A stretch of 64,000 nt of DNA, taken from NCBI GenBank assembly GCA_027459745.1, contig DAIDHL010000002.1:191310-255309 (forward strand), read 5' to 3'. Numbering within the stretch: the first letter of the stretch is position 1; the number at the start of each line of letters is the position of its first letter. The position numbers and the translations under genes were made by a program. Below, piece by piece: positions 10,667 through 35,787 of the stretch. Under the pieces are notes generated by a model. The model worked only from the letters and a program-made list of their open reading frames with translations. It did not search any database and was not told where the DNA came from. This DNA is from Candidatus Levyibacteriota bacterium. Lineage in GTDB: Bacteria; Patescibacteriota; Microgenomatia; Levybacterales; UBA12049.

Positions 10667-10675
10667 GATAAAAAC

Positions 10676-18642: not shown

Positions 18643-18650
18643 AGTTATTC

Positions 18651-19190
18651 TTACTTAAGCATGTCTGCTAAACTAGATATAGCAGTAATGTTTCGAGTCA
18701 ACATGTGTGTTTTTCTTTGCGGATTCAACCAGAAAAATTTAGTGTTTTTATTTTGTTTGGCAACGTATTTTAATAAATGAAAGTCGTCATCAACATATCG
18801 ATCAATTTTCAGCTTTTTTAAAATATTATCTTTAAACAAGTGTGGTTGTTGGTTAGAAAAATTAAAATACATCTCGTCAAATATCTTATCGAAGCCGTGT
18901 TTTTTTGTTAGTTTGTGGGTGGTTTGTTCCAAAAAACTAAACCTACTAGAGATCAAGTAGAGCTTGTGTTCTTTCTTTGAAATTGATTCAAGAAATTCAA
19001 TATTTTTTTTGATTTTTGGTCTGAGAAATGGGAGATGAATAAGGCTACGCAGGATTTGTTCAGGTCTTGAAGGAATTCTATAGATTAGCACACCGTTGGC
19101 TTTTTTCTTATATAGATGATTGAGCACACTGTCTGGTATGAGTGGTGGATAGTCCACAAATACTTTGTCTAGATCGAAGCCTAAGTTCAT
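18651..19190 (-). CDS. HAD-like hydrolase (putative phosphatase)
   Basis: The N-terminal LGFDLDKVFV fits HAD motif I, hhhDxDx(T/V). The product is 179 aa. This is weak, motif-only evidence. Confidence 0.3.
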   Translation of the reverse strand: MNLGFDLDKVFVDYPPLIPDSVLNHLYKKKANGVLIYRIPSRPEQILRSLIHLPFLRPKIKKNIEFLESISKKEHKLYLISSRFSFLEQTTHKLTKKHGFDKIFDEMYFNFSNQQPHLFKDNILKKLKIDRYVDDDFHLLKYVAKQNKNTKFFWLNPQRKTHMLTRNITAISSLADMLK

Positions 19191-19249
19191 AATTTAATAT
19201 TAAGTATAAAGTATTCGACGTTATACAAACAAGCGATAAATGGCAGTTT

Positions 19250-20290
19250 TTATAATTTAGAAATCAGATCAAGAATCTTAAAGTTCCAGTTAACACGATG
19301 AGTATTGCCTTTACGATTTACTATTTCGTTTCTATGTTCTTTATACCAATTATAACTTTCTAAAAATAACTCTTTGTTGGACTTCTTGGGATGCCAATTA
19401 AGTAATTTTTCAGCTTTGGCTATAGAGACATAAGAATTTACGGGCATGGTTTTATAATGCCAGGCTGCAATTGGAGAAAGGTTTAAAATTTCTAAAATGC
19501 CAAGTATAAATTGGGATAGTAACACAGGAAGACCGGTAATTTTAGCTTTAGACCTACTTTGTTTGATAACATAACCTAGATCACTTTTCCATGATCCATA
19601 TTGTTTTGCACCAATATTAAATATCTGATTGTGTGTTTTGCTTATAAGAGCCTTATAAATCGCCTCTACCACATCTGTCACGGCTAATAATTGATATTTG
19701 TTGTCGCCATTACCAAGAATATATAATCGTCTATTATTATAAATTGCTTCAAACCAAAGAGCAAAAACTCCCAATCTTTCAATACCCAAGAAGGTTTTTG
19801 GTCGAATAATGTTTATCTCCAACCCTTTTTTCATATAATCTTTGCATAATCTTTCCCCTTCAATCTTAGAAATTCCATACCATCCGATAGGATCTAAAGG
19901 GCTTTCTTCTGTTTCTGGTAAATGCTTTGGTACCCCATAAACAGCTGTAGAAGAAATGAAGACAAGTCTTTTTATTTTGTTTTTCAATGCAGATTCAAGT
20001 GTGTTTTGTGTGCCGTCGATATTAACATGAAAAATTACATCTTTCTTGACTTGGATAGGAAGTGCAGCAGCTGTGTGAACTACATAACTATGATTTCTGA
20101 GGGATTTTAACAGTAGTTTCTTATTGCTGACGTCACCTTTAATAAATTTGACTTTTCCAACTAAATCTTTTGCATCAAGATCTGCGATGTCATATAAAGT
20201 AACATCCCAATGAGCTTTTAAAAATCTTCTAGCCAGATGTACTCCTAGAAAACCTGTACCACCTGTAATAAAAACTCTCTTTTTTTGCAT
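19250..20290 (-). CDS. NAD-dependent epimerase/dehydratase (extended SDR)
   Basis: The Rossmann motif VFITGGTGFLGVHLARRF is present. Catalytic YxxxK lies in context (YGISK). The product is 346 aa. Confidence 0.75.
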   Translation of the reverse strand: MQKKRVFITGGTGFLGVHLARRFLKAHWDVTLYDIADLDAKDLVGKVKFIKGDVSNKKLLLKSLRNHSYVVHTAAALPIQVKKDVIFHVNIDGTQNTLESALKNKIKRLVFISSTAVYGVPKHLPETEESPLDPIGWYGISKIEGERLCKDYMKKGLEINIIRPKTFLGIERLGVFALWFEAIYNNRRLYILGNGDNKYQLLAVTDVVEAIYKALISKTHNQIFNIGAKQYGSWKSDLGYVIKQSRSKAKITGLPVLLSQFILGILEILNLSPIAAWHYKTMPVNSYVSIAKAEKLLNWHPKKSNKELFLESYNWYKEHRNEIVNRKGNTHRVNWNFKILDLISKL

Positions 20291-20431
20291 AACTTTTGAA
20301 TTAAGACTTATAAAGAAGATATTGGGCAGAAAATATTTTCTATTTATTAATTATTCTATTGTACAATTTTACCTATTTCAAAAGCAAGAGTAATTGTATA
20401 AATAGATGCATTGAAGGTATAATAAATTTAA

Positions 20432-22030
20432 ATGATGAGTTTAGATTATAAAAAATATTACTTAAGAATAATTGAATTAATGCTGTTATTTACAATATTG
20501 ATTTTGGGTTTAGTAATTAGATGGCAAGGTATAGACACGGTTCCTTACTCCATTGAACAGGATGAATATCAGTGGTCTATAACAGCTTTTCTAAACTCCT
20601 ATAACATAAACTCAAGTGACAAAGGGGCATGGACAGTTAACTATGAGCTTTCTCAGTACTATCCTGTTACTTTTGTGTTTGATAGAATTTCTTTTTATAT
20701 CTTTGGACCAGATTTAGTCTCCCCTAGGAAGATGTTAATAGTTATTAGCACATTATCACTATTAGCATTCTACTTATTTATACGTAGACTATTTCCTGCA
20801 TGGACATCCTTAATAACTTTAACCTTATATAGTTTTTCTACCTACAAACTAATTACCAGTCGTATTGTGGAAGCATCCGCCTATATAGATCTTTTTACTT
20901 TTGTTGCAGCTTATATATTAATAGCAGTGCCGTTCGTTGAAGGATATGAGGGTTTTTCTTTGATGTTTCTAGGAGGCTTATCAGTAGTTTTGGCAATGCT
21001 TACTTATAATCAAGGATTTTTATTACCTTTGGTTTTCTTTATGATATTTGTATTTAAAGTATTTATTAATAGATGCTCAATAAAAGTAGTTAGATTCTAT
21101 TTTATTGCTTTCTTCTTGCCGATTATAGTAGCTCTTCCAAGATTGATATATATTGCCCATCAAGAAGCACTGTCACAAAACTATGCATTAACTTCTCTAG
21201 CGGTTTCATTAAATGGAATAGATCTGCATAAGTTATATGGAAATTTACAGACTGTATTTATAATACTATTCCTACATTCAAGTTATGACATGATAGTAAA
21301 TTATTCTGGGCCAATAGTAAATACTTTAGTTGTTGTTTTAGCATTGATCGGTATTGTGATAGGGTTATTACAGATTAAAAGATATTATCCAATACTATGT
21401 TTCTTCATTTTTATGTCCGTACCGTATCAGTTATTTTTTGGAATTAATGCTCCAAGGTGGTGGTATTTAAGCATAAGTGTAATTTACATCTTAGCAGGAG
21501 TAGTACTATTTAATCTCGAGAGAATATTAAAATGGTTATACATACGCAAAAAAAGAGGATTTCTATACGTATTAATAATTTTATTATTTATTACTATTAG
21601 TTATATTATTCAAGGAGAGGTTTGTAGATACTATTATCAAGCTTTATACAATCCATCCTTTAGGTCTACTGCGGATAGAGAAATGTTTGAAATAACTTAT
21701 AAATATAGAAGTGATTTAGGTAAAAATATTGCGTTCATTTTTTACAATGACGATTGGTATGAGCGAGATTTAATTACGAACCTAGCAGCATCATCATATA
21801 ATTATGTCTTAGCAAATTCAAATAACGCAAATAACATAAGAAATCAATCTAGATTAGCGTTAAACATAATGAATTTAGAAGAGTTTTATGACTATAAACA
21901 AATCTCAAAAATTAACAAGGTAGTAGTACCATATGTTTTATACCCTAAAATAAGAACTTACTTGCTAAGCAAAAAATATAAAATTAAAACTACGTATTTT
22001 GGGAAAAACTTTGACATAATTTTTGATTAA
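20432..22030 (+). CDS. GT-C fold membrane glycosyltransferase (PMT/ArnT-like, GT39/GT83-like)
   Basis: The 532-aa product is polytopic. A DE motif sits in the first extracytoplasmic loop (EQDEYQW). The overall architecture resembles its two neighbours. Confidence 0.4.
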   Translation: MMSLDYKKYYLRIIELMLLFTILILGLVIRWQGIDTVPYSIEQDEYQWSITAFLNSYNINSSDKGAWTVNYELSQYYPVTFVFDRISFYIFGPDLVSPRKMLIVISTLSLLAFYLFIRRLFPAWTSLITLTLYSFSTYKLITSRIVEASAYIDLFTFVAAYILIAVPFVEGYEGFSLMFLGGLSVVLAMLTYNQGFLLPLVFFMIFVFKVFINRCSIKVVRFYFIAFFLPIIVALPRLIYIAHQEALSQNYALTSLAVSLNGIDLHKLYGNLQTVFIILFLHSSYDMIVNYSGPIVNTLVVVLALIGIVIGLLQIKRYYPILCFFIFMSVPYQLFFGINAPRWWYLSISVIYILAGVVLFNLERILKWLYIRKKRGFLYVLIILLFITISYIIQGEVCRYYYQALYNPSFRSTADREMFEITYKYRSDLGKNIAFIFYNDDWYERDLITNLAASSYNYVLANSNNANNIRNQSRLALNIMNLEEFYDYKQISKINKVVVPYVLYPKIRTYLLSKKYKIKTTYFGKNFDIIFD

Positions 22031-22038
22031 AGACTGTA

Positions 22039-23862
22039 TTAAATTTTTTTAAAGATCATGATTTTGGGATGGTCATATACAGTAAATGATTCGTCTGCTG
22101 ATTGGTCATTAATTGGTATATTCATAAGAGGAATTTGCGGACTAATAGAAAACTGTTTAATTTTTTTAAAAATTAAATGTCTTGCACCGGGCAAATTGGC
22201 GAAAGAGGTACCTTGCAATATTGGTCTACCCGCGAACAAATTTTTGTAATACATACTTGCTATGGGATAGCAGCGTGGAAAAGGATATTTTTGGCAGTTT
22301 GCTAATTTTTGTATAGGTACATACAGACGATTTGAGGCAATGATTATATATTGAACTTGTTCTAGTTGATTTACTATTCCCTCCCATTTTTGTTGTGTAT
22401 CCGGATCATATAAAGGTAAAGTTTGCATTTCATAATTTGGAGCTGTACCTAAAGGTAATTCATCATCCCAATGCTCAACGGCAATACCCGTTCCTGAAGG
22501 TAGATTTTGATTAATATATTCTGTCGCCTGAACTCTAGTATTCGGTTGAGAATAAATATGTATGAAACTGAGTGGCCATATAAGAAGTAGAATGACAAAT
22601 GACGGATAGATCGCATATTTTAATAAGTTTTGGGATTTTGACTTATGGATTTGGAATATCGTTAGTGAATTAAGATAAATTATAAATTTATAAATCAGTA
22701 ATGCACCAAAAAGACAGAGTAAAGGATATAGAGGTAACATATAACGCATAAAGCCAATTGCAAACTTACCAACAATAAAAAAATATATCCAAAAGAAAAC
22801 GACTAATATAAATTCGTCTGCCCAAAGTGTTCTCTTATAAATATCCTTATCGGGTTTGTCTTTTAAAGTAGTAGTGCCAGAAAATATTTTACGAATTGAA
22901 TTTAGAGTGATATAAATCGATCCGCTGAACGTAATAATTGCAAGCAATGGCCCTAGTCCCCATAAGAATATATTTTCTATCTCATACCAGTATGGTATTA
23001 TTCCTACATATTGAAGGGTATAAGGAAACGTGAAAGCATTTGTGGTCATAGCGTCTTGTTGTAATGTCTGAGTCATAAATTCATTAAAATCAATAAATGC
23101 ATAAGGTTCTAAAACAAAATACGCTGCAGTCAGGGTAATTAAGATGAATAAACTATTACGTAATAATCCTACAATAAATCGTGGCAAATGATTTAACCAT
23201 TTCTTTGGATGAATGGAATGACTTAATAGCAATAATAAAAAATCTGCAGTTAATGCAATTACTACAGAAATACCTATAACTGTTGCACTAATTTTGGTCG
23301 CTAAGGCAAAAGCAATAGTTAAACCAATCAGAATAGCCTTACCAATGGAAGGTTTGTTATAAAACTTTATTAAAAGATAGAGAGTTATAGTCATAAAGCA
23401 AGTAAGTAGAGTATCTACGGCGTAAAAATGAGAAGTTTGAATAGCAAAAACGCTTATTGAATAGAAAAAAGCGGCAATTAGACCTGCCTTTTTATCTTTT
23501 AAATTCTTCCCCAATAAATAGACAAAAATAATAGTGCCTAAATCAAATGTGGCAGAGATTATTCTCCCCAATAAATTAATTCCATCATAAGTTGATAACG
23601 TGGGTTCTATATGAATAAACAACATACTCATTAACTTAAGTAAATATAAGGGAAAAGAACCGTAAGCAAAGAAATGAGGATTCCAAGGACTTTGTATTGA
23701 AAGGAATTGATTAAGATTACTGGGTAACTGGAGTTGTAAAGTATACAATACGATTGCTCTCTCATCAGGGTGTAAGTGATTGCCTTGATCCCAATCAATA
23801 TCATGCAAGCGAAAAATTGCTGCTAATATAATAATTAAAAATAGAATGATTTTAGATCTCAT
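22039..23862 (-). CDS. GT-C fold membrane glycosyltransferase (PMT/ArnT-like)
   Basis: HLHPDERAIV follows TM1 (the DE motif of GT39/GT83 loop 1). The product has 11 or more TM helices, and its C-terminal soluble domain is about 150 aa. Confidence 0.55.
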   Translation of the reverse strand: MRSKIILFLIIILAAIFRLHDIDWDQGNHLHPDERAIVLYTLQLQLPSNLNQFLSIQSPWNPHFFAYGSFPLYLLKLMSMLFIHIEPTLSTYDGINLLGRIISATFDLGTIIFVYLLGKNLKDKKAGLIAAFFYSISVFAIQTSHFYAVDTLLTCFMTITLYLLIKFYNKPSIGKAILIGLTIAFALATKISATVIGISVVIALTADFLLLLLSHSIHPKKWLNHLPRFIVGLLRNSLFILITLTAAYFVLEPYAFIDFNEFMTQTLQQDAMTTNAFTFPYTLQYVGIIPYWYEIENIFLWGLGPLLAIITFSGSIYITLNSIRKIFSGTTTLKDKPDKDIYKRTLWADEFILVVFFWIYFFIVGKFAIGFMRYMLPLYPLLCLFGALLIYKFIIYLNSLTIFQIHKSKSQNLLKYAIYPSFVILLLIWPLSFIHIYSQPNTRVQATEYINQNLPSGTGIAVEHWDDELPLGTAPNYEMQTLPLYDPDTQQKWEGIVNQLEQVQYIIIASNRLYVPIQKLANCQKYPFPRCYPIASMYYKNLFAGRPILQGTSFANLPGARHLIFKKIKQFSISPQIPLMNIPINDQSADESFTVYDHPKIMIFKKI

Positions 23863-23864
23863 AA

Positions 23865-25598
23865 TTATTTAGTTCGTCTAAAAATAAATATCGTAGGTCG
23901 ATCAAATACACTTGCTGTCTCTTCATAAGAGAAGACAGGATTTCCTAAATATGTAATTTGACAAAAAATATCACAAGGAGTCTCATAAACAACTTTAAAG
24001 TTTAGTTTATCAGACAATAACTGCGTATAGAAATTATGTCCTTGTGGAAATTGTTTTTCATTATCTAACCGTACTTTCATGATTCGTTGGCTTGGTAAAA
24101 TTATCGCCTGTGACTGACTTAATGCTGAATGTAAGGTGTTAGGGTTAGTCTGGTCAGAAGGATTATCTAAATCATAAAAATTGTATAATCTTATATTAGA
24201 AAAATAAGAATTAAAGGGCACAATACCTAAGTCATATACCTCACTGAGAATCTTAGTATTAGAAGATAAAACATTCCTAGCTGCTTGTAGTGCTTGCAAG
24301 CGAGTATCGGTTTCTATATAAGCACTAATTAAAAAACTTAAGGCAAAAATAATTGTGTAAAGTATTGCTAAAATATAAGATGAATTTACCAATTTTATTG
24401 TCAGCTTTTTTTTGGCATTTTCATAAAGTTTAATTAAAGTAAATGAAATCATTAAATAAATAAACGGCAAAGTTGGTACCATATATCTAGTCCATTTAAC
24501 AAAGAAAAAAGCTTGTGACAAAAATATTAATAAGAAAAAAAACACAAGTAGAAAAAGATCAAACGTCACTTGTTTATTTTTTTCAGAAGTGGATTTTAAA
24601 CGCGGAAAAGAATTGCTCAGATAAAACTTAAAGATGACAAAACAAGTATAAAAAAAGGAAAAAACAAAGAATATAGTCAGAAGGGGATTGATTAAAAAGG
24701 GAAAAACATGTAAAAGTTGGAAAATAATGGGAGCAGTATTGTAAAACTCTCCAGTGTAGAAAACGGGTTGTGTACCGAGTGCTACACCAGACTCATAATG
24801 CATGCTATTTAAAAATGAAACTTTATCTAAAAAGGTATAAGGATTAGTTAAAATATAAATATCGGCTACAATAAATAAAAAAATAAATACTTTTAACAAC
24901 ACAAACAAAACATGAAAAAGTCTACTGAAGTTAGTCTTATGTTGTGCGAAATCTTGTATGGAAGACTTAATAATAAGTAAAATTGGTATCGGTAATAGTA
25001 CGAAGGAAGTAACTTTACTTGCACAGAGTATAGCAGTTGTCAGAATCATTAAAACAAAAGGAAGAAATTTATTAGTTCTGTAATACCATAGGGCTGAGCC
25101 AAACATTAAAGTAGAAAAGAGGGTGAGCCACATTTCATATGTACCAAAATGGGCGAATTGTATAAACCCTACACTAAAAGTAGTCAAAATAGCCGAAAGA
25201 ACTCCAGTCCAGGCGTTTTTTATATATTTACCAAGTAAAAATGACAATGGAATTAATATTAAACTACTAATTGCAGCTATTATTCTCAAACCAAGGATTG
25301 CCTGTGTGAAGTTTACTTGAGTACAGTTAGTCCACGATAAATGACAACTAGTAAAAAAGTTTAATACAAGGCTACTAAAGTAAACTAGATAAATAGGTAA
25401 GGAGCCATAGGCAAAAAAATGTGGATCCATTTGGCTGGCAAATTGTAGCCCTACGATAGATGAAGCAATGTTTCTTTCATCGGGATGAAAATAAAAAGGT
25501 GCCCCCCAATTAAGATTATAAAACCTTAGAACAATACCTAAGGCCATCAAAATAATAATAATTGAAGAGGTGCTACTTTTATTTAACAATTTATGCAT
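23865..25598 (-). CDS. GT-C fold membrane glycosyltransferase (tandem paralog of 22039-23862)
   Basis: The product has the same N-terminal architecture and loop motif (YFHPDERNIASS) as its neighbour. It lies 2 bp upstream of that neighbour on the same strand. Confidence 0.55.
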   Translation of the reverse strand: MHKLLNKSSTSSIIIILMALGIVLRFYNLNWGAPFYFHPDERNIASSIVGLQFASQMDPHFFAYGSLPIYLVYFSSLVLNFFTSCHLSWTNCTQVNFTQAILGLRIIAAISSLILIPLSFLLGKYIKNAWTGVLSAILTTFSVGFIQFAHFGTYEMWLTLFSTLMFGSALWYYRTNKFLPFVLMILTTAILCASKVTSFVLLPIPILLIIKSSIQDFAQHKTNFSRLFHVLFVLLKVFIFLFIVADIYILTNPYTFLDKVSFLNSMHYESGVALGTQPVFYTGEFYNTAPIIFQLLHVFPFLINPLLTIFFVFSFFYTCFVIFKFYLSNSFPRLKSTSEKNKQVTFDLFLLVFFFLLIFLSQAFFFVKWTRYMVPTLPFIYLMISFTLIKLYENAKKKLTIKLVNSSYILAILYTIIFALSFLISAYIETDTRLQALQAARNVLSSNTKILSEVYDLGIVPFNSYFSNIRLYNFYDLDNPSDQTNPNTLHSALSQSQAIILPSQRIMKVRLDNEKQFPQGHNFYTQLLSDKLNFKVVYETPCDIFCQITYLGNPVFSYEETASVFDRPTIFIFRRTK

Positions 25599-25635
25599 GA
25601 TTCAATTGTACTTAAAAAAATATATGAATGTAAAA

Positions 25636-26919
25636 CTATTGGTGATTAGTAACAAATTGAGCTATTCTCTCTCCCAGCTCAACTGCATAGTTGGTTCCTC
25701 TATCCCATGGGTAAACTTGTTGCATATTAGCTAAATAAACGTTCTCTAGTGGTGTGGTGAAAGGAGGTATCATTTTACCGTAGTTTTTAAAGAAAATAGG
25801 CTGAGCAAAGGGTGTAGAGAATTTTCTGACGGCAATAAGATCTTTTTTATAATCTGGGTTAATTGTTTTTAAAAAACTATCAAACTCTGACAGAATTTGT
25901 TTTTCATTCATAGAGAAATACCGGTGATTATTAGGTAAGTAGTTACCCAAATAAATAATGTGTTCATTGTTATAATGTTTTTTATCCATAAAATTAGTAT
26001 GCTCAACTACAGCTAATACAGGTGCTTTGGTGTCACAAACATTTAACCAGTATGTATCATCAACAAAGAATTTTTTCTTTAAACGCATTACTAGTACAAC
26101 TGCTCCGATACCTTTTAAATTGATTAACGACTGTTGATAATCTTCAGGTAGTTGGGGAGCAACTTTAATAAAAGCGAAAGACGGTAAAGTTACAATGACT
26201 TTGTCAAAACTCTCGGCCCTAGATTCGGAATGGAGGGTATAAGTTATTAATGGTTTGCCTTCAGTTTTAATTTCATTTAATTCGGTTTGGAAATATATTT
26301 TTCCGCCTTTACTTAATATAGCTTTTGCAAGGAATTCTGCGAAGTGCAGGAATCCTCCCTGAGGATAGGCTAGATATGTAGTACGTTTTTTTATACGAGA
26401 CCAGAACCATGTCAATGCAATTTTATCAGCATATTTGCCGAACTTACTTACTAATAATGGCTGCCAAAGAATCTGATAGGCTTTTTTGCCGATTGTTTTG
26501 CTCAAAAATGCTGATGCTGTTATATTTTCAAACATCTTCCAATAGGGATTGTAACGCAGAAATGCTAGCACCAATCCCATTTGAAATCTCTCAAACATCG
26601 AAAGTTTGGGGAAAGTAAGTAGTGTTAGTGGTGAATCAAGTTGATAAATTCGGTTATTTATCAAAGAAGATGTTTTTGGCCTTTTAATTAAGACAGGATA
26701 TTTCAACTCTTTAGCTAAGTTAAGTATTGAGTCATCATTTGTGAACCAATGATGATAAAAATATTCCAGACTCCAATCCCAGTCTTTTTCTTGATAGCCG
26801 AGTGCTAAGCCACCAGGTTTATGATCTTTTTCAAAGACTGTAACAGTATGGCCGGCGCATGTCAGACGGTAAGCAGCAGCCAATCCAGTGAAACCTGCTC
26901 CAATAATAGCTATTTTCAT
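25636..26919 (-). CDS. FAD/NAD(P)-binding oxidoreductase (amine-oxidase/phytoene-desaturase/UGM-like fold)
   Basis: The N-terminal dinucleotide-binding motif MKIAIIGAGFTGLAAAYRL...VTVFEK is present. The product is 427 aa. Substrate is not assignable from sequence. Confidence 0.65.
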   Translation of the reverse strand: MKIAIIGAGFTGLAAAYRLTCAGHTVTVFEKDHKPGGLALGYQEKDWDWSLEYFYHHWFTNDDSILNLAKELKYPVLIKRPKTSSLINNRIYQLDSPLTLLTFPKLSMFERFQMGLVLAFLRYNPYWKMFENITASAFLSKTIGKKAYQILWQPLLVSKFGKYADKIALTWFWSRIKKRTTYLAYPQGGFLHFAEFLAKAILSKGGKIYFQTELNEIKTEGKPLITYTLHSESRAESFDKVIVTLPSFAFIKVAPQLPEDYQQSLINLKGIGAVVLVMRLKKKFFVDDTYWLNVCDTKAPVLAVVEHTNFMDKKHYNNEHIIYLGNYLPNNHRYFSMNEKQILSEFDSFLKTINPDYKKDLIAVRKFSTPFAQPIFFKNYGKMIPPFTTPLENVYLANMQQVYPWDRGTNYAVELGERIAQFVTNHQ

Positions 26920-26947: not shown

Positions 26948-28384
26948 TTACCTAATAACCCCCTTGGACAGGTAGATGAGCAGCCCGCCAAGTATAACAG
27001 GAATTAGCGCAATTATCATACTGGTTGTAGCAGAATCACTTCCAGTCACAGGTGTGCCTGTGAGGTGCGGAGTGTTTGTAATACTTGCTTGAGCAATAAC
27101 ATTGCTTGGGACAATGGTGGTAGTAGGAGTAAGGGTTGGTTTAAGGGTAGGGGTGGCTGTAGGCACAATAGTGGCCGTAGGAGTAGGACTAGTTGATGGA
27201 TTAGGAGTAGCAGATACTATGGTCGGCGAAATCGTTGGAGTATTCGTAATAGTTAGAGTTGGGGTTATAGTTGGTGATACTTCCACAGATGGAACCAAAA
27301 ATTGTCCGCCCGACGCATATACATAAAAGGTTGAAGACACAGTATGAGAGAGTCCTAAATTGTCTAATGCGGTAATTGTGATGGTATGTTGTCCAGGAGC
27401 CAAATTCGTAGAAGGAATATATTGCCAATTACCATATTTGTCTGTAGTTACGGAAGTAGAGATTGCATTAGAAGAATGAATAGATATAGTTACGTCTGTA
27501 CCAGGAGCAGCAGTTCCTGCAAAAGTTGGCTGTTGGTCGGCAAAAGCCTGACCTTGGGTGGGACTTGTTATGCTAACATTTTTCTGTACAGTTTTGCTAA
27601 AAGTGGTAGTTGGTAAACCAGAGGAGGAAGCAATATTTGTGCCAGTAGGGATAGTGGCGGAAAAGTCATAATTGTTGCCTAGGACGATGGTGGGCACTGT
27701 TTGGGTCAACCCATTAGGAATAGTAAGCGTGGTTTGTTGGCCGTCAGCTTGGACAAGTAGATAAATTTTAGCAAGAGAAAGGTTTAGATTGTTATTTGTT
27801 GAATTAAGGAAATTAGAACTATCTAAACTGTAACTACCATCATTTGCCACTAAGACAGATAAATCCTCTACTCCAGAAGCAGTAGCATAAACAATAGCTT
27901 CCTGATCTAAAGCTGCAGGAATTATAACTTTCCCCTTTAATTCTTGAGAAGATAGTTTATTTTCTGGAGGCGAAAGGGTCTTTATAGAATAAGGGTGTCC
28001 ACCATTCTCATATGTATTCCCGCCGGATAAGATATTAAAGAGGTAATTTGTATCTGGCTGTAGATTTTTTAATGTAAAGTAATGTAATTTATGGTTATTT
28101 GATGTGTTGGTATTATCACGATCATCAAAAACGACAGTGTTTGCTTGACCTGCTTGTTGATAAGAAATAGTTCCGCTAGTAGATTCTGTCGTTGTGTAGC
28201 TAATAGTAAAACTAGTAGAGCTTAAGTTAGTTATGCGTATGTTCTCAGGTTGTCCACTGCCTGACGCTTGGCTAAAAGGATTTACCTTGTTTTGCGTAAC
28301 AAAAGAGACAGTAAAAAAACCTAGTATTAATAAAAAGACTATAGATAGCCCTGGTATTCTTCTTTCTAAGAATGATTGTTTCAT
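26948..28384 (-). CDS. Cell-surface protein: signal/anchor, Fn3-like domain, Thr/Pro-rich stalk, C-terminal TM anchor
   Basis: An N-terminal hydrophobic signal is followed by the ITNLSSTSFTISYTT beta-sandwich pattern. A long PT-rich linker follows (PTITPTLTITNTPTISPTIV...TPTLKPTLTPTTT). The C-terminus has a hydrophobic helix plus KGVIR. Confidence 0.5.
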   Translation of the reverse strand: MKQSFLERRIPGLSIVFLLILGFFTVSFVTQNKVNPFSQASGSGQPENIRITNLSSTSFTISYTTTESTSGTISYQQAGQANTVVFDDRDNTNTSNNHKLHYFTLKNLQPDTNYLFNILSGGNTYENGGHPYSIKTLSPPENKLSSQELKGKVIIPAALDQEAIVYATASGVEDLSVLVANDGSYSLDSSNFLNSTNNNLNLSLAKIYLLVQADGQQTTLTIPNGLTQTVPTIVLGNNYDFSATIPTGTNIASSSGLPTTTFSKTVQKNVSITSPTQGQAFADQQPTFAGTAAPGTDVTISIHSSNAISTSVTTDKYGNWQYIPSTNLAPGQHTITITALDNLGLSHTVSSTFYVYASGGQFLVPSVEVSPTITPTLTITNTPTISPTIVSATPNPSTSPTPTATIVPTATPTLKPTLTPTTTIVPSNVIAQASITNTPHLTGTPVTGSDSATTSMIIALIPVILGGLLIYLSKGVIR

Positions 28385-28764
28385 GGTAATGGTCCTGATG
28401 GTGTTATAACGACTGGTGTTTGGGTAGGCGTCGGATTGGCTGAGGTGGTTGCATTATTTTCTACTGTGTTCAAATCTTTGAGAAGACTAGAAGAAGATGC
28501 TGAAATAGGAAGTGTCGCTGATAAGTTGGCGGAGATAGTGGCGGAAGGATTATTAATTGAATATATTGGGGTGACTTGTTTTCTGTTTTGTATCAGTCGT
28601 ATTACCGATTGATTAAAAGAGTCAGGAATGGGTTGTACAATTAATTGTAAATCAGGGTTAATAGTAGATGTAGAAAAGATATGATAAATGCTAGAAACAA
28701 TCCAGGCAATCACAAAAAAAAGAGTAGAGTAAAGTAGGAATATTATATTTTTTTGTATTTTCAT
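28381..28764 (-). CDS. Small single-pass membrane protein with S/T-rich disordered tail (PilP-like?)
   Basis: The 127-aa product has an N-terminal TM helix. It is translationally coupled (4-bp overlap) to the downstream surface protein. Confidence 0.35.
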   Translation of the reverse strand: MKIQKNIIFLLYSTLFFVIAWIVSSIYHIFSTSTINPDLQLIVQPIPDSFNQSVIRLIQNRKQVTPIYSINNPSATISANLSATLPISASSSSLLKDLNTVENNATTSANPTPTQTPVVITPSGPLP

Positions 28765-28770
28765 AAGTAA

Positions 28771-29439
28771 TTAATTCTCTGAATATCCATATAATAATAC
28801 AGTTAAAGTTAGCGCGTTATCTGCAGGATTTTTAGATATTTCCAAAGAATGAATAGTCACAATCCTTTGTATTTGTACAATTTGACTTAGAAAATTCTGC
28901 ATATCTTGATAGCTTCCTTCAAAAGAGATAGACACAGCAAAAGTAGAAACATTGGCTGGTAGGTTCGATTCAGTACTATTCTTAACTGGTGAAATTGAAA
29001 GAGATTTTTGTACGAGGTTGTTAGCCTGACCTGTCGCTTGGATATCAGCTGCTAAGCCTTCTATCTCTGATGACTTGGGAATAGCATAGAATATCTCATT
29101 AAACACAGGCTGTGTCAGTAAATTTGTATATTGAGTTTGTAAGGAATGTAGAGCAGCTTTTTTTGTTTGTAATTGTTGAAATATTTGTTCTGCGTCACTA
29201 AGCTGTTTTTGTAAATCTACGACAGTCGATAAGGTGGGATAAATCGCAAAGATTGCTGCTAAAATTAAAGCTGACAGAGTCAAAAGAGTTTCTAAATAAT
29301 CTTGTGTTTTTTTCTTGCGTAAATCGGGCAAAATATGGATAGTAGAGAGGTACCTCCTTCTGTGAATAGATTCAAGGTTTTTCTCGTGTTGTGTCTTAGA
29401 TTTATCTGTGTCTGGATTTATTGGCTTTATATCTGGCAT
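28771..29439 (-). CDS. PilO-like bitopic membrane protein (cytoplasmic N-term, TM, coiled coil, periplasmic domain)
   Basis: The call rests on architecture only: TM LLTLSALILAAIFAIYPTL, then coiled coil LQKQLSDAEQIFQQLQTKKAALHSLQ. Confidence 0.3.
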   Translation of the reverse strand: MPDIKPINPDTDKSKTQHEKNLESIHRRRYLSTIHILPDLRKKKTQDYLETLLTLSALILAAIFAIYPTLSTVVDLQKQLSDAEQIFQQLQTKKAALHSLQTQYTNLLTQPVFNEIFYAIPKSSEIEGLAADIQATGQANNLVQKSLSISPVKNSTESNLPANVSTFAVSISFEGSYQDMQNFLSQIVQIQRIVTIHSLEISKNPADNALTLTVLLYGYSEN

Positions 29440-29447
29440 ATTAATTT

Positions 29448-29969
29448 TTAGTTTGTTGATATATTTAAAATCGCACTTACCTGTCCAGTTGAAATTTTGT
29501 TCTGAATATTTTCGATATTTATATCTGTAACATATCTAAGCTGTTTAATACTTGTAACAAAAGCATTAAGCTGCCCAATTGAATTGGTTGAAATAACAGC
29601 CAATTCTGATTTGTCAGAGATAGAAATATCAGTAAATGTAATGTTACCTTTTGCTACATCAATCAAGTCTTTTAATCGAGTTATACCGGTAGAAGAAGTA
29701 TTGCTTATTTGCCCAATAAGTTGAAGTCTTGCCTGCAAGTTGCGAAATAGAGTTTCAGAGTCAGACATTGCTTTAACAATAATCTTATCGTTTTGTATTT
29801 GATCGTGTAAGTTAGTAAGCCTGTAATCAACAGTAAATCTATACAAAAATGCAACTAATGCTACAGAATATGTAAGCATGATAACCATACGCCCATATGT
29901 GAGCGTCCATTGTACTATGCGGTCTATAACATTACTTTGTTGTTCTTGAAAGAAATTTATTGAACTCAT
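29448..29969 (-). CDS. PilN-like bitopic membrane protein
   Basis: A short N-terminal tail is followed by a TM (MVIMLTYSVALVAFLY) and a coiled coil. It is the first gene of a coupled four-gene operon. No pilM is adjacent. Confidence 0.3.
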   Translation of the reverse strand: MSSINFFQEQQSNVIDRIVQWTLTYGRMVIMLTYSVALVAFLYRFTVDYRLTNLHDQIQNDKIIVKAMSDSETLFRNLQARLQLIGQISNTSSTGITRLKDLIDVAKGNITFTDISISDKSELAVISTNSIGQLNAFVTSIKQLRYVTDINIENIQNKISTGQVSAILNISTN

Positions 29970-30148
29970 ATGGTATTAATTTAGTCTAGGAAGTTTGGGT
30001 GAGTTTGTCAAAGCTCAAAGCGTGTTTAGAGAAATAAAAATCTTGCTAACAATAGGCGTCTGGGCTGTATAGCGTAGCTATTAGAAATATGATATACTAT
30101 TTATGTCAAAAGATAGATAAATCATAAATCTGACTTTTGGCGTTTTTT

Positions 30149-32820: not shown

Positions 32821-33411
32821 TTATAGTCTTTTATATGCAGCTATTATTCTTTGTACAAAAGTGAAAGCAGAGAGAAGAATTAGCATAACAAATACTGCTT
32901 CAAGCAAATTTAAGTTTAAAACTTTAAAATTAGGCCAGAGTATATAAGCAATGAGTGAAAAAAAGATGATAGCCAAGCGTTCGGTTCTTTCTATTAATCC
33001 AACAGCAAACACTTGTTTGGCTCCGCTAGCTAGTTCTGCTCGTGATCGGGAATAACTGACTAGATAAGAAATGGCAATTAAGAATACACAAATTTGCCAG
33101 CTTACAATATTGGCAAAAGCAAAGCTCATAATCAGGAAAAAATCAGCGATTCTATCAAATGTTGAATCCATAAAGCCGCCAAAGGCAGTCTTTTTATTAA
33201 ATCTTTTGGCTACTGCACCATCCAAAGTATCAAAAGCGTTGCCCAGAAATGCCACTAAAGCCCAGCCATACTGATGATTTAAAATTAAAATAAAGAACAG
33301 AATTGATGGTACAATACCAATGAGAGTTAAGAGGTTGGGAGAAACTGAGGCAAGAGGAGAGACAAGTTTTTGGGTAGTTTTATCGATGGTTGGTTTAAAA
33401 ATTGATAACAT
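32821..33411 (-). CDS. CDP-alcohol phosphatidyltransferase (PgsA-like)
   Basis: The full family signature D-G-x2-A-R-x8-G-x3-D-x3-D is present: DTLDGAVAKRFNKKTAFGGFMDSTFDRIAD. The product is 196 aa and polytopic. Confidence 0.75.
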   Translation of the reverse strand: MLSIFKPTIDKTTQKLVSPLASVSPNLLTLIGIVPSILFFILILNHQYGWALVAFLGNAFDTLDGAVAKRFNKKTAFGGFMDSTFDRIADFFLIMSFAFANIVSWQICVFLIAISYLVSYSRSRAELASGAKQVFAVGLIERTERLAIIFFSLIAYILWPNFKVLNLNLLEAVFVMLILLSAFTFVQRIIAAYKRL

Positions 33412-33542
33412 AAAAATATTAGTTGTTTTAGCGACAAAGTAGATCTTGATGGGGTCCTTCGACTCCTTCGTAAACTCGGTCGCTCAGGATGACAAAAAGA
33501 ATTTAAAGATTATAATTCTTTCTGTCAATTGCTTATGCTTAT

Positions 33543-34232
33543 ATGAATACTATAAAGATAGATCTGCATACTCATTCTATTTTATCACCTGACGGTGGTT
33601 TAAGCGAGAATGACTATCAGAGCTTATTAAATAAAGGAATATTGGATTATATTGCCATAACTGATCACAATCGGATCGATTTCGCACAAAAAATGCACAC
33701 ACTTTTAGGTGATAAAATAATTGTCGGTGAAGAGATTAGCACAAGTGATGGGGAAATAATTGGTTTATTTTTAAATAAATCAATCGACAAAGGTTTAACT
33801 ACGTTTCAAACTATACAACAAATAAAAAAACAACAGGGATTAGTTTGTATACCACACCCATTTGAAACTATGCGTAAGGGTTTGCCGGAAAAAATCTTAA
33901 AGGAAATAATTAAAGAGGTGGATTTAATGGAAGTATTTAATGGACGTAGCTTGCAACCCGCGACGCGTAAATTGGCATTAGAGTTTATTGATAAATACAA
34001 TAAAGTCGGAGTTGCTAATAGTGATGCACATTGTAGAGTGGGAATTGGTAAAACATATAATTCAATTGATAAAAAACCGCTTAAACAAACGTTGGTAAGC
34101 TTATTAAAACAAGGAAACAGGCATGAAATAGCTTCTCCTTGGCTGGCTTATTTATGTCCCAAAGTTAATAGATTTAGAAATGTCATTCTGAACGTGTTTC
34201 AGAATCTTAATTTAAAAGAAATGCTGAAATGA
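33543..34232 (+). CDS. PHP-domain metal-dependent phosphoesterase
   Basis: The N-terminal IDLHTHS and IAITDHN histidine motifs are present. Later His/Asp residues follow (IPHPFE, NSDAH). The product is 229 aa. Confidence 0.65.
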   Translation: MNTIKIDLHTHSILSPDGGLSENDYQSLLNKGILDYIAITDHNRIDFAQKMHTLLGDKIIVGEEISTSDGEIIGLFLNKSIDKGLTTFQTIQQIKKQQGLVCIPHPFETMRKGLPEKILKEIIKEVDLMEVFNGRSLQPATRKLALEFIDKYNKVGVANSDAHCRVGIGKTYNSIDKKPLKQTLVSLLKQGNRHEIASPWLAYLCPKVNRFRNVILNVFQNLNLKEMLK

Positions 34233-34247
34233 ATTCAGTATGACAGT

Positions 34248-35168
34248 TTGGTTTATTTTATGAAAAAAGTTATTTACTTACTCAATCCAAAATCTAGTGA
34301 TGGGAGAGCGCTAGAATCTTGGCAAAAAGCCAGAGAAAAATTTCATGGGTTGCCAGAACATCCCCATTTAATTACAGAAATCGCAAATGTGCAAGACTTT
34401 ATCGAAAAAGAAAGACCAGACATTATTGCCATAGGTGGTGGAGATGGCACTATCAATAAGGTTTGTCAGGCTGTTTTATCCTCTAAAACCAAACCATGTT
34501 TATCTATTTTACCTCTAGGGACGGGTAACGCACTATCGTTCTGCCTGGGAGTAGAAACGTTGGAAAAGGCAATATTTGTGTTGGAAAAACAACCCAAATC
34601 TATAACCATCGATATTATGCATACTAATATTCCGGAATTTCCATTAGGAGTATTCAATATTAGTGTCGGATTTGATGCACGTATAGTATTTAATAGGGTA
34701 AATTATCGTTATATTGGTTTGAAATCATATATTTTTTCTGGCATCAGGAGTTTTTTTGGCCACCCAGAACGTGAAATTACATTTACTATTGATAAAAAAG
34801 TGACTTTAAAAGCTACGGCTAGTTCCTTGGTGGTAGCCAATTCACCGGTTTTAGGACAAAATCTTCTAATTTCTCCGCGGGCTAGGCTAAATGATGGTTT
34901 GTTAGATTGTACGTTATTTTCCACTAAATATGCCTATATGCAGAATCTGCGCTTGCGTGGTTTTAAGCATCCCTTTTATACGGAATTGGGTAAAGTGCAT
35001 TTCAAAGCGTCACATCTTTCTATTCAAGGTGAGCCCTATGTACAAATTGATGGAGATCCGGTGGTTAGGCAGGAAGGAATTGAAGTGTCGGTTCTGCCAA
35101 GTAAAATTACTTTTTTGCGTAACTTTGATGATCATATAGAGCAGAATTATAAGTCGTTTGTAGTATAG
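34248..35168 (+). CDS. Diacylglycerol/lipid kinase catalytic-domain protein (DgkB/YegS-like)
   Basis: The DAGK_cat signature IIAIGGGDGTINKV is present, and PLGTGNAL follows downstream. The product is 306 aa. Confidence 0.7.
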   Translation: MVYFMKKVIYLLNPKSSDGRALESWQKAREKFHGLPEHPHLITEIANVQDFIEKERPDIIAIGGGDGTINKVCQAVLSSKTKPCLSILPLGTGNALSFCLGVETLEKAIFVLEKQPKSITIDIMHTNIPEFPLGVFNISVGFDARIVFNRVNYRYIGLKSYIFSGIRSFFGHPEREITFTIDKKVTLKATASSLVVANSPVLGQNLLISPRARLNDGLLDCTLFSTKYAYMQNLRLRGFKHPFYTELGKVHFKASHLSIQGEPYVQIDGDPVVRQEGIEVSVLPSKITFLRNFDDHIEQNYKSFVV

Positions 35169-35259
35169 TTAGTAGGAAGGTCGAGTCATGACCTAAGTGG
35201 AAATTAGAAATTTTGTTCCGGCTCGCTTGAACTAGGTTAAGGATTATTAATACGAATCT

Positions 35260-35787
35260 ATGAATTATTTAATTTATGCTTTTTTGTTTTTTCTACCAGC
35301 TGGGATTGCCAATATGGCGCCGGTGTTAGTTAGTAAAATGCCGGGTTTGCGAGACTGGAATTACCCACTGGACAATTACACAAAGTTTAACGGTAAGCGA
35401 TTATTAGGTGATCATAAAACCTGGCGGGGATTATTGTCAGGAGTGATAGTGGGAATGTTAGTTGCCTGGGTGGAGGTAAGGATAATTGGGGGCATCGGGG
35501 TATTTAGGGAAGTAAATCCATTAGTTTTGGGAGGTTTGATGGGTTTGGGGGCATTGGTGGGAGATAGTGTCAAGAGTTTTTTCAAACGACAGCTGGGAAT
35601 TAAGTCGGGCCAAAGCTGGTTTCCTTTTGATCAAATAGATTATATAATAGGCGGAATTATATTTATTTTGCCGATTATTGTTTTATCCTGGCATATTTAT
35701 TTAACGATTTTTATTATCTATTTTTTACTGCATCTTCTGGTTTCTTTCCTTGGTTATCTTTTAAAGTTTAAATCGTCGCCTATCTAG
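35260..35787 (+). CDS. CarS-like CTP:lipid cytidylyltransferase (CDP-archaeol synthase family, DUF46) homolog
   Basis: The 175-aa polytopic protein has LPAGIANMAPVLV ... KRLLGDHKTWRGLLSGVIVG. I recall both segments as hallmark segments of the archaeal CarS family, but this comes from memory of that family, not from an alignment. Confidence 0.5.
   Translation: MNYLIYAFLFFLPAGIANMAPVLVSKMPGLRDWNYPLDNYTKFNGKRLLGDHKTWRGLLSGVIVGMLVAWVEVRIIGGIGVFREVNPLVLGGLMGLGALVGDSVKSFFKRQLGIKSGQSWFPFDQIDYIIGGIIFILPIIVLSWHIYLTIFIIYFLLHLLVSFLGYLLKFKSSPI

Follow-up and report, generated by a model that had tools for sequence, protein, structure and literature searches.

The 64-kb window, i.e., the whole stretch of DNA analyzed here, is derived from an uncultured member of Candidatus Levybacteria (Microgenomates, CPR) and contains a block of four adjoining genes, of which the first two resemble pilN and pilO. 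This arrangement raises the question which structure is served by a PilN/PilO pair that lies apart from all other pil genes, and whether the two proteins encoded next to it belong to the same machine.

Organization and conservation of the gene block

The open reading frame list placed the four genes, each starting with ATG, on the minus strand at positions 29448-29969 (gene 1), 28771-29439 (gene 2), 28381-28764 (gene 3) and 26948-28384 (gene 4), encoding proteins of 173, 222, 127 and 478 aa, respectively. On this strand, the TAA stop codon of gene 1 is separated by 8 nt from the ATG of gene 2, the TAA of gene 2 is separated by 6 nt from the ATG of gene 3, and the stop codon of gene 3 overlaps the start codon of gene 4 by 4 nt (ATGA). 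The list and the junction reads thereby confirmed the ORFs, sizes and spacing given in a preliminary description of this DNA. Hydropathy analysis predicted one transmembrane segment each in the products of gene 1 (residues 29-47), gene 2 (52-70) and gene 3 (7-25), and two in that of gene 4 (12-30 and 454-472).

A promoter-like site (TTGACA-17-TAGACT, positions 29983-30011, minus strand; 10 of 12 consensus matches) is located just upstream of gene 1, within the 167 nt that separate this gene from the divergent fusA. This site is weak evidence, as the consensus scan of the region yielded 32 sites compared to 37.7 expected from shuffled sequences. No predicted terminator occurs along the minus-strand gene run, which comprises seven genes and extends down to position 22039.

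For comparison, loci from Levybacteria, Woesebacteria and other Microgenomates were used. Every one of the 55 eligible non-redundant loci contained all four genes in the same order and on the same strand, with homologues 25-85% identical; therefore, the four ORFs are real genes and not chance ORFs. In the loci of Woesebacteria and other Microgenomates, the block was kept at 25-35% protein identity. Genes 3 and 4 again overlapped by 4 nt in about 40 of 48 loci; in most loci, pilO and gene 3 were either 1-7 nt apart or joined by a -4 overlap, and no split block was seen among the loci examined. Outside the block, the upstream neighbor varied (fusA vs. rpsT/murJ), and so did the downstream genes. 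Thus, conservation as a unit in related genomes, on which the preliminary description had made its operon proposal depend, was observed in every eligible locus.

Relationship of genes 1 and 2 to PilN and PilO

The gene 2 product consists of a cytoplasmic N-terminus of about 50 aa, the transmembrane segment, a coiled coil and a PilO core domain. It matched PF04350 with an E-value of 1.4e-16 and 61.4 bits (gathering cutoff 22) over profile positions 4-141 of 145, and also matched the solved PilO structures 2rjz (E 8.5e-7), 5uvr (E 1.2e-3) and 3jc8_O (E 3.6e-3). PF04350 was found on the gene 2 orthologues in all inspected contexts except one (L073). GspM models scored below their cutoffs, with 35.2 bits for NF040576 (cutoff 60) and 19.6 bits for PF10741 T2SSM_b (cutoff 21.7; E 8.7e-4). 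By its sequence, the gene 2 product is a bona fide PilO.

The gene 1 product starts with the cytoplasmic N-terminal peptide MSSINFFQ, which is followed by the transmembrane segment, a long helix extending to around residue 105 and, at residues 106-173, a ferredoxin-like domain of the 2x(alpha-beta-beta) type. The window protein itself matched no Pfam family at E ≤ 1, and PilN was absent among its sequence matches in the PDB, with either a single-sequence or a profile query. PF05137 (PilN) was matched by 8 of 10 aligned homologues, which share 33-84% identity with the window protein; the best of these matches had an E-value of 2.2e-6, and precomputed PilN matches existed for the orthologues in loci L067, L069, L071 and L073. 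The N-terminal peptide of PilN, which is of the (I/L)NLLP type, binds PilM in the Thermus and Pseudomonas PilM-PilN structures. Almost all of the approximately 55 gene 1 orthologues possess a corresponding 'SINLL[KP]' motif, which is degenerate (SINFFQ/R) in the window protein and in the two relatives closest to it; the window protein has INFFQ instead of INLLP. The AF2 model (pLDDT 78.7) has helices at residues 14-105 and 131-142 and strands at 110-117, 121-128, 147-158 and 163-172; Foldseek matched it to PilO in 3jc8, to PulL, XcpY and EpsL (TMt 0.72-0.78), to PilO 2rjz and to PilN 4bhq. The gene is located immediately upstream of pilO, an order that is the same in 55 of 55 loci. Based on the family matches to PF05137, the N-terminal motif and the modelled fold, gene 1 encodes a divergent PilN. 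The earlier assignment of both proteins, made from an architecture of transmembrane segment, coiled coil and periplasmic domain, was thus borne out, and on stronger grounds than architecture, i.e., a PF04350 score above cutoff, matches to PilO structures and a gene 1 family that matches PF05137.

Genes 3 and 4

In the gene 3 product, the transmembrane segment is followed by a conserved ectodomain segment and a variable S/T/P-rich tail. The family alignment yielded the ectodomain consensus WIgFnIYH..TSTIS....QI.PI.P.FD..TI..LK.R....P.Y, and the conserved juxtamembrane segment spans about 45 residues. The protein had initially been described as a transmembrane helix with a disordered S/T-rich tail; both parts were recovered, but the conserved segment shows that the ectodomain is not only tail. 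No match was obtained in Pfam, NCBIfam or the PDB, and every one of 399 homologues was annotated as 'hypothetical'. An exhaustive search (E ≤ 1e-3) returned at least 1063 cluster representatives at 50% identity; the best 150 of these 1063 were all 84-140 aa in length and included no fusions. On these sequence grounds, gene 3 founds an unannotated family of small bitopic proteins.

Gene 4 encodes a predicted secreted or wall-targeted protein. Its N-terminal signal/transmembrane segment (residues 12-30) precedes an Fn3/Pur_ac_phosph_N domain (45-135), a middle beta-sandwich (148-240; CarboxypepD_reg-like) and a Big_13 domain (270-355). The C-terminal part consists of a PT-rich disordered stalk (366-449; 60% S/T/P), the sequence TPVTGSDS, the second transmembrane segment (454-472) and the tail SKGVIR. 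Pfam scores exceeded the cutoffs for Big_13 (40.9 vs. 27 bits), fn3 (32.4 vs. 25) and Pur_ac_phosph_N (32.6 vs. 30). The AF2 model contains three confident beta-sandwich domains (pLDDT 80-95), for which Foldseek returned generic tandem FnIII arrays only.

The C-terminus of the window protein reads TPVTG-SDSATT, followed by the transmembrane segment and SKGVIR. Within the family, 43 of 93 members have an [LIV]PxTG[SN]-type motif and most of the other 50 have PPG[SN]S, in each case followed by a transmembrane segment and a basic tail. Among 39 family members, 2 were recognized by the LPXTG anchor model TIGR01167, and these weakly (E 0.022); the window protein was not matched. No sortase candidate (TLxTC motif) was identified in the 64-kb window or adjoining the block; sortase is near-ubiquitous in Microgenomates (PMC6744442). 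We interpret the C-terminus as a putative tripartite, sortase-type sorting signal. Accounts of this protein as a single Fn3-like domain on a PT stalk with a C-terminal anchor were therefore right about Fn3 and stalk and incomplete otherwise, as there are three beta-sandwich domains and the anchor has the tripartite form. Two further observations were made during this survey: a similar C-terminal signal is present in unrelated Levybacteria proteins, and P0059, the most distant gene-4-like protein, occurs without PilN/PilO.

Genomic context of the block

The gene directly downstream of the block encodes a 427-aa FAD-dependent oxidoreductase (positions 25636-26919, minus strand; Pfam Amino_oxidase/NAD_binding_8; NCBIfam NF005560 PRK07233, E 6e-123) and starts 28 nt after gene 4. 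It is followed by two GT-C-type membrane glycosyltransferase-like genes (22039-25598, minus strand), one encoding a protein of 577 aa without a family match and the other a PMT_2/PMT protein of 607 aa. The glycosyltransferase genes had been thought to follow the operon immediately, which is not the case, as the oxidoreductase gene comes first. The two GT-C-type genes share the strand of the block, no terminator is predicted ahead of them, and they may be co-transcribed with the block. In related loci, their presence is variable, whereas the oxidoreductase gene directly follows gene 4 in about 38, the two often showing a -4 overlap, and is missing from about 8. The usual neighbors, also in Woesebacteria and other Microgenomates, are genes for the FAD oxidoreductase, GT-C/PMT_2, DUF2298, LCP and MurJ proteins.

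A search for pilM, pilB, pilT, pilC, pilD, pilin and sortase genes found none, either in the 64-kb window or, for any of about 60 loci, in the 10 kb flanking the block on each side. The previous statement that no pilM, ATPase or pilin gene is adjacent therefore holds across the whole window, which covers 64 kb of a contig of about 256 kb. A PilM-family Pfam match was also absent from the window and from any annotated context, where the gene upstream was the divergent fusA or rpsT/murJ. Genes 3 and 4 showed no PilP or secretin matches, and none of the loci encoded a second PilN or PilO in the 10 kb to the left or right of the block. As no pil genes are located near the block, its link to a pilus is by homology only. 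A pilN-pilO pair that is detached and joined in a block with two lineage-specific genes appears to be characteristic of Microgenomates.

CPR bacteria widely encode PilB, PilT, PilC, PilM, PilN and PilO, without PilQ (PMC6744442). For a closed Microgenomates genome, the single pil locus lists PilA, minor pilins, PilD, PilB, PilT, PilC and PilM, and not PilN/PilO (PMC7143001). A pilus machine with PilM and without PilN/PilO at its own locus needs these two proteins from elsewhere; together with the conserved, presumably PilM-docking motif, this argues that genes 1 and 2 encode the machine's own PilN and PilO, apart from the main locus.

Possible roles of the block

On balance, we favor, with modest confidence, the explanation that a type IV pilus machine obtains its PilN and PilO from genes 1 and 2, at a distance from the main pil locus, and that genes 3 and 4 encode lineage-specific extracytoplasmic partners which replace PilP and PilQ. 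The bitopic PilN and PilO would pair via their coiled coils and their ferredoxin-like domains outside the membrane. The cytoplasmic N-terminal peptide of PilN (SINLLK/P in the family, SINFFQ here) would dock the actin-like PilM, which would connect with the ATPases PilB/PilT and the platform protein PilC. Genes 3 and 4, probably translationally coupled to each other and always following pilO, would provide the lineage-specific extracytoplasmic partners: a small bitopic adaptor with its conserved juxtamembrane segment, and a protein of three beta-sandwiches on a PT-rich, probably O-glycosylated stalk, which the sortase-type C-terminal signal would fix to the peptidoglycan. In a presumed four-protein complex with a role in the pilus, both would connect the cell wall with the PilN/PilO layer, a task that in outer-membrane bacteria falls to PilP, PilQ and peptidoglycan-binding domains, all of which are lacking in CPR.

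As the block is intact in every related genome examined, it may represent the outer half of the pilus machine in these bacteria, which have a wall but no outer membrane. A more far-reaching proposal, which we regard as tentative and less likely than not, is that the Microgenomates pilus has a new outer half in which the gene 3 adaptor and the peptidoglycan-anchored, glycosylated gene 4 protein replace PilP/PilQ, couple PilN/PilO to the wall and guide the fiber through it. If true, a wall-spanning component would be defined here for the first time in a pilus machine of bacteria that lack an outer membrane.

A rather unlikely explanation, essentially the one offered in the preliminary description and one to which the gene neighborhood nevertheless lends some weight, is that PilN and PilO no longer serve a pilus and, together with gene 3, form a scaffold in the membrane by which the gene 4 protein would be exported, glycosylated or attached to the wall, alongside the downstream FAD oxidoreductase, GT-C, DUF2298 and LCP proteins. 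The block never occurs beside pil genes, yet is so often followed by the oxidoreductase gene, and the recurrence of GT-C/PMT_2, DUF2298, LCP and MurJ genes nearby, even in Woesebacteria and other Microgenomates, would fit an envelope role equally well. Judged from its composition, the PT-rich stalk would be a plausible substrate for PMT-type O-glycosylation, and a precedent is provided by PilM/N/O homologues that were recruited to a flagellar cage (PMC10823254). However, the conserved, presumably PilM-docking motif would imply a PilM partner, at least 8 loci with an intact four-gene block lack the oxidoreductase and glycosyltransferase genes or carry them in a displaced position, and the published Microgenomates pil locus has PilM without PilN/PilO (PMC7143001). 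In addition, long-range gene order in small CPR genomes can reflect descent and not function. As a further alternative, genes 1 and 2 might encode an ordinary pilus PilN/PilO, and genes 3 and 4 an unrelated surface or adhesin pair kept in place by synteny and operon compaction. Gene 4 indeed has generic adhesin-type domains, its most distant relative, P0059, is found without PilN/PilO, and CPR genome compaction gives short gaps everywhere. We consider this improbable, since rearrangement on both flanks has left the block together in 55 of 55 loci, at 25-35% identity, genes 3 and 4 overlap almost universally, the PilO-gene 3 distance is similarly short in most loci, and no locus has a split block.

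Very improbable is a type II secretion-like pseudopilus in a monoderm, to which PilN and PilO would belong and for which the gene 4 protein would be the cargo. PilO also scores on GspM models, GspL periplasmic domains give the best superposition of the gene 1 model, and a preprint proposes that a Clostridium perfringens type IV pilus gene set secretes a matrix protein (bioRxiv 10.1101/2024.11.04.621531). The GspM scores remain below cutoff, however, while PilO exceeds its own; pseudopilin or ATPase genes are absent nearby, and in the gene 4 protein an ordinary Sec-type N-terminus is combined with a putative wall-sorting C-terminus, so that a dedicated exporter would not be needed. Proteins of the FtsL/DivIC/FtsB type share the gross architecture of a transmembrane segment and a coiled coil, and a weak match to DivIC (PF04977) was obtained for gene 2 (E 0.16, 12.3 bits). 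This score is far below the cutoff of 28.9 bits and contrasts with 61.4 bits for PilO, genes 1 and 3 showed no FtsL, DivIC or FtsB profile matches, genes 1 and 2 both encode a ferredoxin-like domain at the C-terminus, which is absent from FtsL and DivIC, and no division genes adjoin the block. The cell-division identity, named in the preliminary description as an example of what would challenge a PilN/PilO assignment, is effectively refuted by the Pfam scores, the PDB PilO matches and the Foldseek fold matches.

Comparison with known systems

The favored reading, a pilus PilN/PilO with new partners, relates the block to the PilM-PilN-PilO(-PilP-PilQ) alignment subcomplex of type IVa pili in Pseudomonas, Myxococcus and Thermus. 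Both have the order pilN-pilO and bitopic proteins with a transmembrane segment, a coiled coil and ferredoxin-like domains, and the likeness extends to the PilO score over the Pfam cutoff, the INLL-type motif of the PilN family and the matches to 3jc8, 2rjz and 4bhq. In contrast to the type IVa subcomplex, the block has no adjoining pilM in about 60 loci and, as expected without an outer membrane, neither a PilP lipoprotein nor a PilQ secretin; instead, pilO is followed by genes for a small transmembrane protein and a putatively wall-sorted beta-sandwich protein, which are dissimilar in sequence to PilP/PilQ. CPR genomes widely carry type IV pilus loci (PMC11623550, PMC6744442). Machines that function without an outer membrane, such as those of Saccharibacteria TM7x (loci 1 and 2), Clostridium and Streptococcus, comprise PilM/N/O, PilB/C/T/D and pilins, and their pilM-pilN-pilO genes are located beside the ATPase, platform and pilin genes, whereas the pilN-pilO pair of the block is detached.

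GspL and GspM of type II secretion systems share the periplasmic fold, and the gene 1 model fits best on the C-terminal domains of PulL, XcpY and EpsL. GspL, however, carries a fused PilM-like cytoplasmic domain that is absent from gene 1, the GspM scores are below cutoff, and no other type II secretion genes are present.

The gene 4 protein resembles LPXTG surface proteins of Gram-positive bacteria, which have Ig-like/Fn3 domains and Pro/Thr-rich wall-spanning stalks, in its Sec-type N-terminus, tandem beta-sandwiches, PT stalk and the succession of motif, transmembrane segment and basic tail, and many orthologues have a canonical LPxTG. It differs in that the window protein has TPVTG, 50 of 93 family members lack an [LIV]PxTG-type motif, the LPXTG HMM barely matches and no sortase is encoded nearby. 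To our knowledge, no LPXTG protein is encoded in an operon with pilN-pilO.

A further parallel is provided by the motor cage of Campylobacterota flagella (PMC10823254). The cage differs from the block in keeping a PilM homologue and a flagellar motor, whereas CPR of the block's group have no flagella; nevertheless, a PilN/PilO-type pair located away from a pilus locus serves another envelope structure there, and the block may be alike in this respect.

Layout and conservation of the four-gene block

The four consecutive minus-strand reading frames singled out in the preliminary description were recovered exactly, in position and size, from the ORF list of the window: gene 1 at 29969-29448 (173 aa), gene 2 at 29439-28771 (222 aa), gene 3 at 28764-28381 (127 aa) and gene 4 at 28384-26948 (478 aa). 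In the minus-strand sequence, genes 1 and 2 are joined by TAA, 8 nt and ATG, genes 2 and 3 by TAA, 6 nt and ATG, and genes 3 and 4 by an ATGA overlap. A hydropathy scan identified one transmembrane (TM) segment each in the products of genes 1, 2 and 3, and two hydrophobic segments, N-terminal and C-terminal, in that of gene 4. The window is AT-rich (about 29-39% G+C), and its closest relatives are MAGs labelled Candidatus Levybacteria or Levyibacteriota, of the Microgenomates group of the CPR/Patescibacteria. Past gene 4, the same-strand run continues through an oxidoreductase and two GT-C genes to position 22039 with no terminator predicted; transcription therefore probably extends past the four genes, and the strictly four-gene operon proposed earlier was ruled out.

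A scan of one genome per species yielded 58 loci, to which exact-protein look-ups added loci from Woesebacteria and other Microgenomates. With HMMs built from orthologues, the four genes were found in the same order, on one strand and within 4.2 kb in 55 of the 55 non-redundant loci that extend far enough, and the expectation that the operon is conserved as a unit in related genomes thus held. The ATGA overlap of genes 3 and 4 occurs in about 40 of 48 loci; at the remaining junctions, the genes mostly lie a few bases apart or overlap by 4 nt. In one complete chromosome (L027, OY970292.1), pilO (10535-11148) appears as two overlapping ORFs, 10535-10927 and 10873-11148, which represents a frameshift or an assembly error; the rest of the block is intact. 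Two upstream arrangements occur: a divergent fusA, which the window has, and rpsT accompanied by a divergent murJ. Directly downstream, about 38 loci have a FAD oxidoreductase gene (NCBIfam PRK07233-type, E 6e-123), which often overlaps the block by 4 nt; it is absent or displaced in about 8, and GT-C/PMT_2, epimerase, DUF2298 (chlor_Arch_YYY) and LCP genes are still more variable. As the flanks vary while the four genes stay together, it is the four-gene block that is conserved as a unit; the glycosylation cluster often accompanies it but can be separated from it.

This envelope-glycosylation cluster (16342-26919 on the minus strand, with the plus-strand stretch 20432-22030 included) is itself conserved and uncharacterised. 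It comprises the PRK07233-type FAD oxidoreductase, three GT-C/PMT_2-like membrane proteins, an HpnA-like SDR epimerase, a 179-aa protein without family and a DUF2298/chlor_Arch_YYY protein; LCP, TIM, UvrD and FemAB genes lie beyond it, and Woesebacteria and other Microgenomates share a large part of this gene set. Many public MAG records with a Levybacteria-type locus are titled 'uncultured Gammaproteobacteria bacterium', and others Sulfotelmatobacter or Limnocylindrales (L010, L011, L018, L020, L025, L029, L030, L033, L039, L042, L044, L046, L055, L062 and L065); these labels are almost certainly wrong.

Genes 1 and 2 encode PilN and PilO homologues

The product of gene 2 matched Pfam PF04350 with an E-value of 1.4e-16 and 61.4 bits (gathering score 22) over nearly the whole model, and its sequence also matched solved PilO proteins (2rjz, E 8.5e-7; also 5uvr and 3jc8). 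The GspM and DivIC models scored under their cutoffs on this protein. Judged by its sequence, gene 2 is a real PilO, a family member by the curated criterion, in line with the PilO-like architecture recognised earlier.

Direct searches with gene 1 against Pfam, NCBIfam and PDB sequences, using the single sequence and a 10-sequence profile, gave nothing useful. Pfam PilN (PF05137) was matched by eight of ten gene 1 homologues, which share 33-84% identity, and PilN is also the precomputed annotation of orthologues from Woesebacteria and other Microgenomates. Almost all of some 55 orthologues share the N-terminal motif SINLL[KP]; in the window protein it reads SINFFQ. In an AlphaFold2 model (pLDDT 78.7), the TM segment and a long helix precede two alpha-beta-beta units; the best PDB matches of the model are Myxococcus PilO from a pilus-machine model, the periplasmic domains of GspL proteins (PulL, XcpY, EpsL; TM-scores on target of 0.72-0.78), Pseudomonas PilO and Thermus PilN. 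As the window sequence fails the direct profile test, the assignment could be made only through its homologues, the N-terminal motif and the modelled fold. Together with the gene order, the profile matches of the family, its motif and its fold identify gene 1 as a divergent PilN, and the PilN-like reading of the preliminary description is borne out. Judging from the Thermus and Pseudomonas PilM-PilN structures, the SINLL-type peptide of PilN is the part that docks PilM. In the window protein (29948-29969, minus strand) and in the two relatives closest to it, this otherwise near-invariant motif has become SINFF[QR]E, a derived state with possible effects on PilM binding.

Genes 3 and 4 encode a nameless small protein and a predicted wall-targeted protein

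Gene 3 encodes a small bitopic protein. Profile searches with it against Pfam, NCBIfam and PDB returned no family match; the best match, HA33 (E 0.008), was judged spurious. A pilin was ruled out as the G-F-T-L-x-E prepilin motif is absent, and a PilP-like protein as there is neither a lipobox nor a beta-sandwich. The protein had been described as a TM helix with a disordered S/T-rich tail. The TM segment and an S/T/P-rich tail, variable among orthologues, were recovered, and between them lies an overlooked segment of about 45 conserved residues (WIgFnIYH..TSTIS....QI.PI.P.FD..TI..LK.R....P.Y). All 399 homologues are annotated as 'hypothetical'. An exhaustive profile search detected 1063 cluster representatives (50% identity) at E <= 1e-3, and the best 150 of these were all 84-140 aa long, with none fused to another domain. 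The block thereby defines a sizeable, unannotated protein family that has no name at present.

Gene 4 starts with a Sec-type hydrophobic segment, followed by an Fn3/Pur_ac_phosph_N domain (residues 45-135), a middle domain with a CarboxypepD_reg score in relatives (residues 148-240) and a Big_13 domain (residues 270-355), all of them beta-sandwiches, then by a stalk of 84 residues (60% S/T/P) and a C-terminal helix. A whole-model Foldseek search returned generic tandem FnIII arrays only and no functional lead. Of 93 family members, 43 carry a C-terminal motif of the [LIV]PxTG[SN] type, and most of the remainder have the variant PPG[SN]S; a hydrophobic helix and a basic tail come next (TPVTGSDS...SKGVIR in the window protein). 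This C-terminus is predicted to be a tripartite sorting signal and the protein to be wall-targeted; the standard LPXTG model barely matches the family. The Fn3-like domain, PT stalk and C-terminal anchor noted earlier were thus retained, whereas two further beta-sandwich domains and the sorting signal had been missed. Regex scans for sortase and prepilin motifs, which covered the window and 71 loci, revealed no sortase gene near the block. Sortase is reportedly near-ubiquitous in Microgenomates (PMC6744442).

A similar C-terminal signal, P(T)GPG[ND]T plus a TM segment, occurs on unrelated Levybacteria proteins. Several Levybacteria encode, about 5-8 kb upstream of pilN, proteins of about 370-410 aa with P(T)GPG[ND]T, a hydrophobic helix and FAL as their ending (L014 4960-6108; L020 4982-6211; L024 5009-6214; L025 4653-5768; L039 4948-6129; L053 4988-6169; L056 2269-3381; L058 4192-5334). 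The ending is a putative lineage-wide variant sorting signal that is akin to LPXTG, yet not the same. Among the gene-4-like proteins, P0059 (Fn3 and Big_13; L072, 5067-6305) is the most distant; it follows a 1442-aa protein, and no pilN or pilO was found near it in that locus; the domain architecture of gene 4 therefore exists outside the block, too.

Other pilus genes and further features of the window

Pfam was run on 56 ORFs of the window, almost all of the listed ones that reach 100 aa and are free of overlap with a longer gene on the other strand. Neither this analysis nor the prepilin-motif regex detected PilM, PilB/T, PilC, PilD or a pilin in the window, and the regex gave no prepilin in the 71 loci. 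In the 10-kb flanks on both sides of the block, no other pil genes occurred in any annotated context, and no second PilN or PilO was found. The earlier remark that no pilM, ATPase or pilin gene is adjacent thus applies to the window and to its annotated relatives. Genes for PilB/T/C/M/N/O are widespread among CPR bacteria, which have no PilQ (PMC6744442; PMC11623550). The single pil locus of a closed Microgenomates genome is listed with pilins, PilD, PilB, PilT, PilC and PilM and without PilN/PilO (PMC7143001), as would be expected if Microgenomates keep pilN-pilO in the block described here.

Elsewhere in the window, a CarS-like, CDP-archaeol synthase-like gene is located at 35260-35787 (PF01864, E 3.5e-26), and an archaeal-type lipid enzyme family is therefore present in a CPR bacterium. 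A diacylglycerol-kinase-like gene (DAGK_cat/YegS, 34248-35168) and one for a CDP-alcohol phosphatidyltransferase (CDP-OH_P_transf, 32821-33411, minus strand) lie nearby, an arrangement (32821-35787) that is kept in two relatives (L001 and L005). After secY, two adjacent adenylate-kinase-family genes (59454-59999 and 60032-60604) are followed by those for cytidylate kinase and methionine aminopeptidase; the second of the pair may encode a divergent nucleoside-monophosphate kinase. A large uncharacterised protein of 897 aa (41200-43893, minus strand), with DUF5667 as its sole match (E 9.7e-7), is possibly located at the surface.

A possible wall-linking role of the block

Type IV pili are well known in CPR bacteria and are thought to be central to attachment to, and feeding on, host cells. 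How bacteria that have no outer membrane pass a pilus through their wall is, to our knowledge, poorly defined. The reading that we consider most likely, with a confidence slightly above even, is that genes 1 and 2 provide PilN and PilO of the pilus machine, and genes 3 and 4 their wall-linking, lineage-specific partners. PilN and PilO would form a membrane pair of the kind present in other type IV filament machines, and the N-terminal peptide of PilN would recruit PilM and, in turn, the ATPases and the platform protein. On the extracytoplasmic side, gene 3 may act as a membrane-proximal adaptor and gene 4 as a peptidoglycan-anchored, probably O-glycosylated, beta-sandwich strut, and together they might substitute for PilP/PilQ, absent from these bacteria. 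Starting from the observed homology, fold, domain content and block conservation, we infer a complex of all four proteins, its anchoring, glycosylation and a link to piliation.

The main rival is the idea of the preliminary description that PilN/PilO serve as a scaffold in the envelope for the surface protein; the pair would have been co-opted and would work with the neighbouring oxidoreductase and GT-C genes. A flagellar cage made of PilM/N/O homologues provides a precedent (PMC10823254), and we regard this scaffold as rather unlikely, though worth serious consideration. The occurrence of P0059 without PilN/PilO would fit mere synteny of genes that share no function, which appears improbable, and a secretion module with gene 4 as its cargo is more doubtful still. 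Clear matches to cell-division FtsL/DivIC proteins, named beforehand as evidence that would speak against a PilN/PilO-like block, did not arise; both scores and fold refute such an identity, leaving it a negligible probability.

In the literature searched, we found no prior description of pilN-pilO being separated from the pil locus in a strictly conserved manner, nor of pilN-pilO joined with a novel small-protein family and a putatively wall-sorted beta-sandwich protein across Microgenomates. If pilus-machine PilN/PilO with wall-linking partners, a function that we infer, is the correct reading, the block comprises candidate parts for the missing wall-crossing layer and gives a testable handle on how the pilus machine is tied to the wall without an outer membrane. 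Annotators are also pointed to the block as the place of the PilN/PilO that are 'missing' from Microgenomates pil loci. The locus differs from the canonical pilMNO(PQ) operon, as had been proposed, in that pilM is not adjacent and PilP/PilQ are not present at the window locus. If co-option for surface-protein display were true, the block would represent a second reuse of pilus alignment proteins in another envelope structure, after the flagellar cage.
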